Positions 27,101-30,100 of a DNA stretch of 64,000 nucleotides are shown here, piece by piece. Position numbers: made by a program. Each line of letters starts with the position of its first letter. The first letter of the stretch is position 1. Where the stretch lies: the NCBI GenBank assembly GCA_041687695.1, contig JAWLBL010000025.1:76129-140128 (forward strand), given 5' to 3'. Source of the DNA: Myxococcota bacterium. Its GTDB lineage: Bacteria; Myxococcota_A; UBA9042; PHBI01; JAWLBL01.

Positions 27101-30100
27101 CCTTGCCGCGCCAGCGCCAAGGCCTCGTCCAGCGAATGCGCCACCTCGGCGCCCTCGGCCACGTAGCCGGCCTGGCGCGTCACCACGATGTTGCGCCGCC
27201 TGGGCAGCGGGCGGCCGATGGACTCCCAGGTCTTGCGGCCCATGATGACCGCGTGGCCCAGGGTCTTGGCCTTGAAGTGCTTGAGATCCTCGGGCAGGTG
27301 CCAGGGCAGGGCGCCGCCCGCCCCGATGACGCCGCTATCGGCCACCGCGACGACCAGCACCAGCCCGGCCTGGGGCGCCTCGGCGCTCACACCGACACCT
27401 CGGCCTTGATGTGGGGGTGCGGGTCGTAGCCCTCGAGCCGGAAGTCCTCGAAGCGAAAGGCGAACAGGTCCGTCACCGCGGGATTGAGGACCATGCGCGG
27501 CAGCGGCCGGGGCGCGCGCGTCAGCTGCAGGCGCGCCTGCTCGAGGTGGTTCGAGTACAGGTGGGCGTCGCCCAGCGTGTGGACGAAGTCCCCCGGCCGC
27601 AGCCCCGCGACCTGGGCGATCATCAGGGTCAGCAGCGCGTAGCTGGCGATGTTGAAGGGCACGCCCAGGAACACGTCGCCCGAGCGTTGGTACAGCTGAC
27701 AGCTCAGCTCGCCCTGGCTGACGTACAGCTGGAACAGCGTGTGGCAGGGCGGCAGCGCGACCTGGTCGGCCTCCTTGGGGTTCCAGCCGGTGACGATGAG
27801 GCGGCGGCTGTTGGGGTTGTGCCGCAGCTCATCGAGCAGACGCAGAATCTGGTCGACACCGTCGGCCTCCCAGGTCCCGTCCGGCCGCGGCGTCGCGCCG
27901 AAGTTGCGCCACTGGTGGCCGTAGATGGGCCCCAGATCCCCCTCGGCGCGGCCGAAGCGGGCGGTCTGCTCGGCGGTGGCCCACTCGTCCCAGATGCGGA
28001 CGCCGGCCTCCTGCAGCGACCCGACGTGGGTCTCGCCGCGCAAAAACCACAGCAGCTCGTGCAGGATCGAGCGCAGGTGAAGCTTCTTGGTCGTCAGCAG
28101 CGGGAAACCCGCCCGCAGATCGAAGCGCATCTGGTGCCCGAACACGCTCAGCGTGCCCGTCCCGGTGCGGTCGTCGCGCCGGACGCCCTCCCGCAGGATC
28201 CGGTCCAATAGATCGAGATACTGCTGCATGGCGCCTCACTACCCCGAGCCATCCCGCCCAAGCAAGCGTTGGCGCAGGCCGGTGGGTCCCCCATACTCGC
28301 CGGCCATGACCGCCCCCGCGCCCGCCACCGAAGCCGAGCTGCTCGCCCGCGCCCGCCGCCTCGCCGGCCGCTCCCTCGCCGCGGTCGCCGCCGAGCTCGA
28401 GGTCCCGGTCCCGCCCGATCTCCGCCGCCACAAGGGCTGGGTCGGCCACCTGGTCGAGCGCGCCCTGGGCGCCACCGCCGCCAGCCGCGCCGAGCCCGAC
28501 TTCCCCCAGCTGGGCGTCGAGCTCAAGACCCTGCCGGTCGACGCGCGCGGCCGCCCCCGCGAGTCGACCTGGGTGTGCACCGCGCCGCTGGCCGACCTCG
28601 ACGCCCTCGACTGGGAGACCTCGCCCGTCCGCCACAAGCTGGCCCGCGTCCTGTGGGTCCCCGTCCAGGCCGACCCCGCCATCCCGCTGGCCGACCGCCG
28701 CCTGGGCAGCCCGCTCATGTGGACCGCCGCCCCCGACGAGGAGCGCGCCCTCCGCGACGACTGGGTCGAGCTGACCGACGTCATCCGCTTGGGGCAGGGC
28801 GAGACCCTCACCGCCCACCACGGCGAGGTGCTGCAGGTCCGCCCCAAGGCCGCCAACGCCCGCGAGCGCAAGCTGGGCGTCGGCCCCAGCGGCTGGCTCG
28901 AGGAGGTCCCGCCGCTGGGCTTCTATCTGCGCGCCCGCTTCACCGCGGCCCTGCTGGCGCGCCACTACGCCCTGCCGGCCTGACGCGCGCTCGTCGCCCA
29001 ACCCCGCGTGCGCGCTTGCGAAATCGCTTCCGGCGCGCCGCGGTTGAACGCCCCCCGGGCGTCGGCTATGGTGCGCCCGCCCGACCCCCCAGGCCCCGCC
29101 CGGCCCCCGTACGGAGGACGCTTCCATGAGTGATCCGCGGCTCGACGAGCTCGTCGTCAACACCCTCAAGACGCTGGCCATCGACGCCGTCGAGCGCGCC
29201 AACTCCGGCCACCCCGGCATGCCGATGGGCATGGCCGACACGGCCTCGGTCCTGTGGCGCCAGTTCCTGGTGGTCGACCCGGCCGATCCCGGCTTCGCCG
29301 ACCGCGACCGCTTCATCCTCTCGGCCGGCCACGGCAGCATGCTGCTGTACGGCCTGCTGCACCTGTCCGGCTTCGACCTGTCGATGGACGAGCTGCAGCG
29401 CTTCCGCCAGCTGGGCTCGAAGACCCCCGGCCACCCCGAGGTGGGCCTGACCCCGGGCGTCGAGACCACCACCGGCCCGCTCGGCCAGGGCTTCGCCAAC
29501 GGCGTCGGCCTGGCGCTGGCCGAGGCGCACCTCGCCGCACGCTTCAACCGCCCCGGCCTCACCCTGGTCGACCACTTCACCTACGCCATCTGCTCGGACG
29601 GCGATCTGCACGAGGGCCTGTCCCACGAGGCCGCCGCCATCGCCGGCCACCTGGGCCTCGGCAAGCTGGTCTACCTCTTCGACGACAACAGCATCACCAT
29701 CGACGGCGCCACCGATCTGTCGACCAGCGAGGACGTCACCGGCCGCTTCGAGGCCTACGGCTGGCACGTCCTGGCGGTCGACGGCCACGACCGCGCGGCC
29801 GTCGCCCAGGCCATCGCCGCCGCCCAGGCCGTCACCGACAAGCCCTCGCTCATCCGCTGCAAGACCCGCATCGGCGCCGGCAGCCCCAACCGCGGCGGCA
29901 CCTCCAAGTCGCACGGCTCGCCGCTGGGCAAGGAAGAGACGCGCCTGACCAAGGAGGCCCTCGGCTGGCCGGTCGACGCCGAGTTCCTGGTCCCCGCCGG
30001 CGTCCGAGAGGCCTTCGCCGAACTGCGCCGCCGCGGCGCCGAAAAGCGCGCCGCCTGGCACGACACCTTCGCCCGCTACCAGGCCGCCCACCCCGAGCTG

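Follow-up and report, generated by a model that had tools for sequence, protein, structure and literature searches.

A MutH-type nickase beside an intact MutL nuclease in a Myxococcota genome, and the repeated decay of that nuclease across the phylum

The window discussed here, the whole stretch of 64,000 nucleotides that was analysed from a Myxococcota bacterium, holds a gene that raises a simple question: what does a MutH-type strand-nicking enzyme do in a cell whose MutL carries a nuclease of its own? The genome-wide survey's note had answered with an E. coli-type Dam-MutH system, and of that answer the MutH stands, as does the MutL that keeps its motifs, whereas the methylase is of another type and SeqA is missing. 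We consider the gene and its partners in this genome (Table 1) and afterward the phylum as a whole.

Table 1. Features of the putative repair set in this genome and of the genes next to mutH. Positions without a contig name count from the first letter of the window; the others lie on contigs C1, C33 and C37.
Feature	Position	Strand	Remarks
folA (dihydrofolate reductase)	26890..27390	-	context only; PF00186, under every NCBIfam cut-off shown
thyA	27387..28229	-	context only; divergent neighbour of mutH; profile search
mutH	28306..28983	+	single open frame, 225 aa; single-domain predicted GATC nicking endonuclease; solitary
mutH, catalytic D65...E72-x-K74	28498..28527	+	E. coli D70, E77, K79; alignment to 1azo
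mutH, Y207	28924..28926	+	methylation-state sensor (E. coli Y212); alignment to 1azo
mutH, C-terminal helix, residues 217-225	28954..28980	+	predicted contact with the MutL C-terminal domain
tkt (transketolase)	29126..31189	+	context only; TIGR00232 above cut-off
mutL	C1:238779-240617		motifs DQHAAHE, QQLLIP, ACH and CPHGRP all present
methylase 1	C37:58876-59751		DpnM-type, orphan; open frame, profile and motif
methylase 2	C33:66668-67552		DpnM-type, orphan; open frame, profile and motif

The gene encodes a true MutH, as had been proposed. Its product passes both curated MutH models (NF003458, 293 bits against a cut-off of 243; TIGR02248, 265 against 230), whereas the Sau3AI model yields 34 bits against a cut-off of 300, thus excluding a two-domain Sau3AI. 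E. coli MutH (1azo) aligns to it with the E value given earlier (2e-73) and with all motif residues present; identity to Salmonella MutH, put at 58% over 218 aa, is indeed high, but comes to 59.7% over residues 38-223. The positions of E. coli K48, E56, D70, E77, K79, E91, F94, K116, R184, K186 and Y212, which apart from the D-E-K motif and Y212 we take to be the catalytic and recognition residues of the family, are all kept, F94 as W. Y212 is the residue by which E. coli MutH senses the methylation state of its site (PMC3848065).

The gene also belongs to the genome in which it was found. This genome is stated to be 99.3% complete and 2.3% contaminated, and the contig with mutH is 140 kb long. 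GC at the third codon positions of mutH is 0.98, similar to the adjoining genes. The neighbouring thyA shares 77% identity with its counterparts in two order-mates, 57% with that of a third and 62-66% with those of two gammaproteobacteria, and tkt is 66-69% identical to its counterparts in order-mates versus 51-53% in gammaproteobacteria. Because codon use is native and the neighbours are best matched by order-mates, mutH is neither contamination nor part of an island, and a gammaproteobacterial island around it was rejected. No methylase gene adjoins it, the neighbours being thyA, folA and tkt. In E. coli, mutH lies near thyA as well; this pairing was not seen at other loci, and the thyA of this genome is native. 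Elsewhere in the window (17000-24454, minus strand) a 2484-aa protein combines 14 Cu-binding_MopE repeats with a PQQ-like propeller.

Two genes could supply the methyl mark. The earlier note had listed two orphan GATC-type methylases, and their coordinates and open frames proved right: no restriction gene was recognised among the 17 open frames around both (two frames by the C37 gene have no family), where uvrB, molybdopterin and signalling genes are found instead, and no DpnII-type nuclease was found in the genome. Both copies, 58% identical to each other, carry the DPPY motif and, as reported for one of them, the recognition hairpin of the DpnM/Dam family (NGLxRVNxxGxFNVP). They exceed the cut-off of that family (TIGR00571, 281 versus 115 bits) and remain below that of the E. 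coli Dam model (NF008152, 185 versus 441 bits). The best solved match is DpnM (2dpm, E 1.8e-70), with E. coli Dam behind (3e-46), and on the tree they cluster with methylases of the same order (support 99), Dam forming a separate clade (98). The label E. coli-type thus does not apply to the methylase, which is DpnM-type and not a Dam orthologue. Judged by sequence, both genes are single-gene orphans inherited with the lineage, with a predicted GATC activity. A third, weak match to the Dam family (28%, E 8e-5) lies elsewhere in the genome (G000:C57:9604-10374).

GATC itself is mildly scarce in this genome (observed/expected 0.83), but with a median gap of 156 bp the sites are dense enough for MutH-directed repair. 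CTAG, in passing, is strongly avoided across the genome (0.19). The clusters of GATC said to flank dnaA are real but modest: one flank has 8 sites within 446 bp, and the other has 7 within 461 bp, or 6 if 446 bp are counted. Their presence is confirmed, a special density is not, as 1.0-2.7% of GC-matched windows reach 7 sites; they add little and we give them no weight. Neither do we accept them as a sign of origin control, since SeqA is missing and no perfect DnaA box was found with a pattern of our own. SeqA, which goes along with the E. coli-type Dam clade, was found in 0 of 201 genomes of the phylum (the E. coli control was positive). No methylome of a MutH carrier was found: a term search of Blow 2016 (PMC4752239) gave no myxobacterium, and Myxococcus hansupus, in which GATC is methylated at 31.9% (PMC4765838), is not counted among the MutH carriers.

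The downstream partners are present too, namely MutS1, two UvrD/PcrA helicases, RecJ and a MutL in which DQHAAHE, ACH and CPHGRP can be read, in line with the claim that its nuclease motifs are kept. A model of the complex between this MutL and MutH scores 0.72, compared to 0.00 for the best of three controls; the mark applied is reached by 116 of 157 solved and by 2 of 215 mismatched pairs and is a rough one here, own alignments having been used. Between runs at least 67% of contacts recur, and the partner pLDDT is at least 80. In the model, the C-terminal helix of MutH touches MutL residues 472-477 (QQLLIP) and 507-526, the latter aligning with the E. coli peptide (MutL 525-541) that crosslinks to MutH helix F (PMC1483222), so the modelled surfaces are those crosslinked or singled out in E. 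coli. Four PDB entries of MutH were found, whose titles name MutH only.

The QxLLxP motif binds the replication clamp. Where MutL has lost its nuclease in the phylum, L474 (26/28), L475 (23/28) and P477 (27/28) are retained, and Q472 goes from 39/39 to 13/28. A fading glutamine beside persisting leucines and proline would be expected if the patch serves MutH more than the clamp. The model supports the view that MutH would dock on the QxLLxP patch. It speaks for compatibility and not for use, however, since the patch is equally conserved in genomes that do not have MutH and Pseudomonas MutL binds E. coli MutH in vitro (PMC8744996).

The phylum offers a wider view. We used 201 genomes, at least 85% complete and drawn evenly by a program, a survey nearly seven times larger than the 30 hand-chosen genomes on which the earlier correlation rested. 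Groups were fixed by the MutH and methylase searches before the MutL genes were read. MutL was above its cut-off in 197 genomes and three more hold contig-end pieces. It could be scored in 195, leaving out G161, G132, G140 and G178 (contig ends), G038 (sequence not retrieved) and G193 (no gene); five intact MutLs, split by a frameshift or contig break, were scored by hand. MutH gave 73 strong and 14 weak matches, the strong ones in a proportion similar to the 48 of 150 genomes counted before.

All 73 MutH genomes have a GATC-type methylase, which is DpnM-type in 59 and DpnA-type in 14, all of these 14 in family f15. The presence of the latter type explains why earlier only 39 of 48 MutH genomes seemed to carry a methylase, with the rest confined to one family. 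Of the 20 genomes of f15, 19 have it as a single-copy N6_N4 methylase, 73-80% identical within the family (loci L472-L490), and the remaining one has a piece at a contig end. The plasmid genes that match it best encode the second methylase in cassettes of two methylases and a nuclease (54% identity for pSRQ700), for which reason we read it as DpnA-type; its GATC site is our assumption. The DpnM-type enzymes are 42% identical to one methylase of pSRQ700, the plasmid of LlaDCHI, whose specificity we likewise take to be GATC. That system is named in PMC6458302. Across the phylum, the DpnM-type methylase occurs in 123 genomes (64 of them with no canonical MutH) and the DpnA-type in 27, none of which also has the DpnM-type. 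MutH occurs in 0 of the 51 genomes that have neither. As a side observation, one genome of 2.8 Mb (G192, L501) has about 30 matches to an N6_N4 methylase.

Against this background, the MutL motifs are distributed unevenly. Where MutH and the DpnM-type methylase occur together they are intact in 26 genomes, lost in 29 and partial in 2, and in the MutH genomes of f15 they are intact in all 14 (one gene is cut before the last motif). Among the 71 scorable MutH carriers, 40 are therefore intact, including the present genome, 29 lost and 2 partial. In the 113 scorable genomes that have no MutH, family f36 apart, none is lost, 112 are intact and one is partial: 50 intact and the partial one among the 51 with a DpnM-type methylase, 62 intact in those with no DpnM-type gene. 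Family f36, with a distinct nuclease, adds 11 losses. The partial case (G114) shows partly decayed motifs and no MutH was found in it; a decay first scored by pattern in G098 was rejected, as the alignment shows intact motifs. Complete loss of the MutL motifs is thus found only beside a MutH-type nuclease among the 195 scorable genomes, making the comparative case for the phylum strong. The earlier statement that decay goes with both MutH and the methylase holds for a MutH-type nuclease; on the other hand, in G110 (of f36) the motifs are lost and neither methylase type was detected, and the nuclease of f36 is not MutH. Two genomes of family f31 (G106 and G141; L113 and L193), in which MutH is missing, keep their MutL intact although weak branches nest them among decayed kin; they may have regained the domain by transfer.

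These losses did not occur once. On a MutL tree of 189 rows (excluding the six unscorable genes, five C-terminal pieces and G036) the decayed genes fall into 15 maximal clades from 10 families. Every one of these clades lies on a branch bearing a MutH-type nuclease, although such branches make up 28% of the eligible and 42% of the methylase-bearing ones. Naive p values, which treat losses as independent, are 2e-6 for 15 events, 1.6e-4 for 10 and 5e-3 for 6; five of the 15 clades lie within one family, on weak branches. An independent-pairs sign test had too few pairs to be significant (about 4 as expected, 0 opposite, median p 0.125). In a tree of the MutL ATPase domain, the gammaproteobacterial proteins form one clade and decayed myxobacterial genes have intact relatives as their neighbours (G026 with G086, G066 with G171 and the genus g37 with G059, among others). 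With 53 hand-picked rows, both a single origin of the losses and their import with a gammaproteobacterial MutL were rejected (AU p 4e-49 and 9e-94). It was native MutL genes that lost the motifs, across 10 families and up to 15 clades, and the single second shift proposed for the phylum thus becomes many.

Family f36 is a case of its own. Each of its 12 genomes (L222-L233) encodes a single-domain MutH/Sau3AI-like protein, previously called a distant MutH. At 55-69 bits against the MutH cut-off of 243, and as a clade separate from MutH, it is a different nuclease family, fixed in f36, which keeps the catalytic and Y212-like residues. The wider family (456 matches) extends to cyanobacteria, Blastocatellia, Planctomycetes and others. 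In 27 of 61 lower-ranked loci a DpnA- or DpnM-type methylase is present, mostly directly upstream, and two genomes of the phylum (G109 and G192) show the same pairing; by gene arrangement, the methylase-linked form is a predicted restriction pair. In f36 itself, the nuclease is solitary (adjoining methylase 0/12), and a DpnM-type orphan lies elsewhere in 11 of 12 genomes. All 11 scorable MutLs of the family have decayed, with an altered docking patch. Other holders of the f36-type nuclease keep CPHGRP in 13 of 14 complete MutLs; in one genome of f36 (G095) the nuclease gene lies about 10 kb from mutL. The f36 nuclease may work like MutH without being one, and its case is a single event. Three Blastocatellia records (L261, L265 and L290 of G213, G215 and G222) likewise have the f36-type nuclease standing alone, along with a methylase of the Dam family at another locus and a MutL that is intact; they are possibly another lineage with both nicking routes.

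The canonical MutH proteins, for their part, are well conserved. In the 56 of 73 that were read, nine catalytic and recognition residues (the D-E-K motif and Y212 included) are invariant, E91 is kept in 52 and the F94 position is always aromatic. MutH and MutL distances correlate (Mantel rho 0.52, p 0.001, 55 genomes; 0.43 between families). On the MutH tree, however, some families do not hold together, a hint of some transfer between lineages. The tree has no resolved backbone, and four proteins from deep gammaproteobacteria are placed apart from the main clade of that group. A separate origin of the present MutH from that of its order-mates found no support (AU p 0.34). Since mean identity is 48% among myxobacterial MutH proteins versus 60% among gammaproteobacterial ones, the phylum could conceivably be the older home of MutH; the trees neither support nor reject this idea, which we regard as doubtful. 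Several deep gammaproteobacteria (L340, L346, L374, L388 and L399) have a MutH that is placed beyond the main clade or on its margin; three of them have a mutL that has no motifs and two have a methylase unlike Dam. In families f22 and f35, mutH follows a gene with DnaE (DNA polymerase III alpha) C-terminal domains at nine loci (L016, L017, L018, L019, L023, L025, L030, L458 and L465).

Taken together, we judge it quite probable that much of the phylum runs methyl-directed mismatch repair, using parts that partly differ from those of E. coli. An orphan methylase (DpnM-type, or DpnA-type in f15) would mark GATC, and the new strand would be briefly unmethylated after replication. MutS would detect a mismatch and load MutL, whose C-terminal domain would receive MutH at the QxLLxP patch; the unmethylated strand would then be nicked by MutH and removed by a UvrD/PcrA helicase and RecJ. 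Wherever MutH nicks, the MutL nuclease would be redundant, and it has decayed independently in many lineages, while the present genome would keep both nicking routes. As for the order of events, we hold as possible, with slightly more doubt than belief, a scheme in which a GATC methylase (of two unrelated and mutually exclusive types) came first, a nickase was added and the MutL nuclease then decayed in at least ten lineages, f36 having tamed a second restriction nuclease and so replayed the origin of MutH.

For the present genome alone, MutH could instead be a spare part that may be lost, with MutL nicking through its own nuclease and the clamp. Its four intact MutL motifs would fit, as would the sister family, where MutH is missing from one of two genomes, and the 22 changes that MutH requires on the MutL tree, from which it follows that the gene was often lost or moved. 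Yet every MutH residue checked is intact, codon use is native and the pair passes the complex test, and we consider a spare part unlikely; even if it were one, the phylum-wide reading would still stand for the lineages with a decayed MutL. We are inclined to think that repair in this genome draws on both MutH and the MutL nuclease. The intermediate state ascribed to it earlier is an interpretation, and it may be stable redundancy, as the methylase occurs in many related genomes that do not carry MutH.

Alternatively, MutH and the methylase might form a scattered restriction-like or anti-recombination system against unmethylated DNA, to which the decay of MutL is a side matter. In favour of this, MutH goes back to the Sau3AI family and is able to cleave unmethylated sites (PMC3848065), the genome is slightly poor in GATC, and the related f36-type family often sits beside a methylase. 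However, within flanks of 1.5-2 kb no methylase accompanies canonical mutH at any of 56 myxobacterial and 80 named loci, PADLOC gave no match for MutH, and no MutH was found on phages or true plasmids, apart from one Legionella record annotated as mutH (a single-protein scan of named genomes and a plasmid DNA search gave almost no matches). This explanation, which also leaves unaccounted for why MutL decay is limited to carriers, strikes us as quite improbable compared to repair.

That the lineages with a decayed MutL simply gave up mismatch repair is very improbable: the nuclease motifs are destroyed in 40 genomes altogether, but MutS1 is above its cut-off in 45 of 45 genomes tested, the MutL ATPase domain is above its cut-off in the survey, the docking leucines persist and NucS (1/45, weak) is no replacement. 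Import of the whole Dam-MutH-MutL set from Gammaproteobacteria, at which a MutH identity of 48% on average between the groups and up to 58% for the window protein might hint, is scarcely credible, as the trees refute it for MutL (gammaproteobacterial MutL is its own clade, and grouping it with the decayed MutLs is rejected by the AU test) and for the methylase (apart from Dam, 98), SeqA is missing and the neighbours of mutH are native, leaving MutH as the only shared part.

How, then, does this predicted repair pathway relate to known systems? With E. coli repair (PDB 1azo, 2azo, 2aoq and 2aor) it shares the MutH family, its active-site and sensing residues, a solitary gene, the predicted MutL contact and, for some of the carriers, a MutL that has lost its nuclease. 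It differs in the DpnM- or DpnA-type methylase, the lack of SeqA, a native MutL whose nuclease was lost many times and the 40 of 71 carriers that keep both nucleases; the MutL of E. coli-type repair has no nuclease motifs, whereas they are intact in this genome. With the MutL-nuclease repair of Pseudomonas, Bacillus and Caulobacter, which do not have MutH, the present genome shares CPHGRP and the motif named D(Q/M)HA(X)2E in PMC8744996, to which it adds MutH and two orphan methylases. The methylases are akin to those of DpnII-type cassettes (DpnM and DpnA; LlaDCHI on pSRQ700) but are orphans here, with no DpnII-type nuclease found in the genome. The methylase-linked MutH/Sau3AI-like nucleases belong to the same family as the f36 nuclease, which in f36 is solitary, fixed and accompanied by a decayed MutL.

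The gene call as such is not new, since NCBI already labels some proteins from assembled genomes, automatically, as MutH of Polyangiaceae or Myxococcales; no cultured myxobacterial carrier was among the named matches listed. Of PMC8744996, PMC3848065, PMC1483222, bioRxiv 10.64898/2026.07.21.739762, PMC4752239, PMC4765838 and PMC6458302, three contain statements that restrict MutH, or the decay of the MutL motif, to gammaproteobacteria. Literature searches at the level of listings, with the main review outside their coverage, turned up no prior report on this system in myxobacteria, in agreement with the earlier claim. The gene is a member of the MutH family; what is new are the DpnM- and DpnA-type methylases, the lack of SeqA, the repeated decay of MutL and, perhaps, a second tamed nuclease.

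In short, MutH is found in about one third of the genomes of a second phylum. Whereas the E. coli lineage represents one event, this phylum provides ten or more, at all stages and with close relatives on either side. With such repeated events one can test why cells give up the MutL nuclease, whether a single MutL patch is contested by MutH and the clamp, and by what route restriction enzymes turn into repair enzymes. If the reading is true, methyl-directed strand choice would be a repeatable outcome of evolution, one that can be watched in this phylum.
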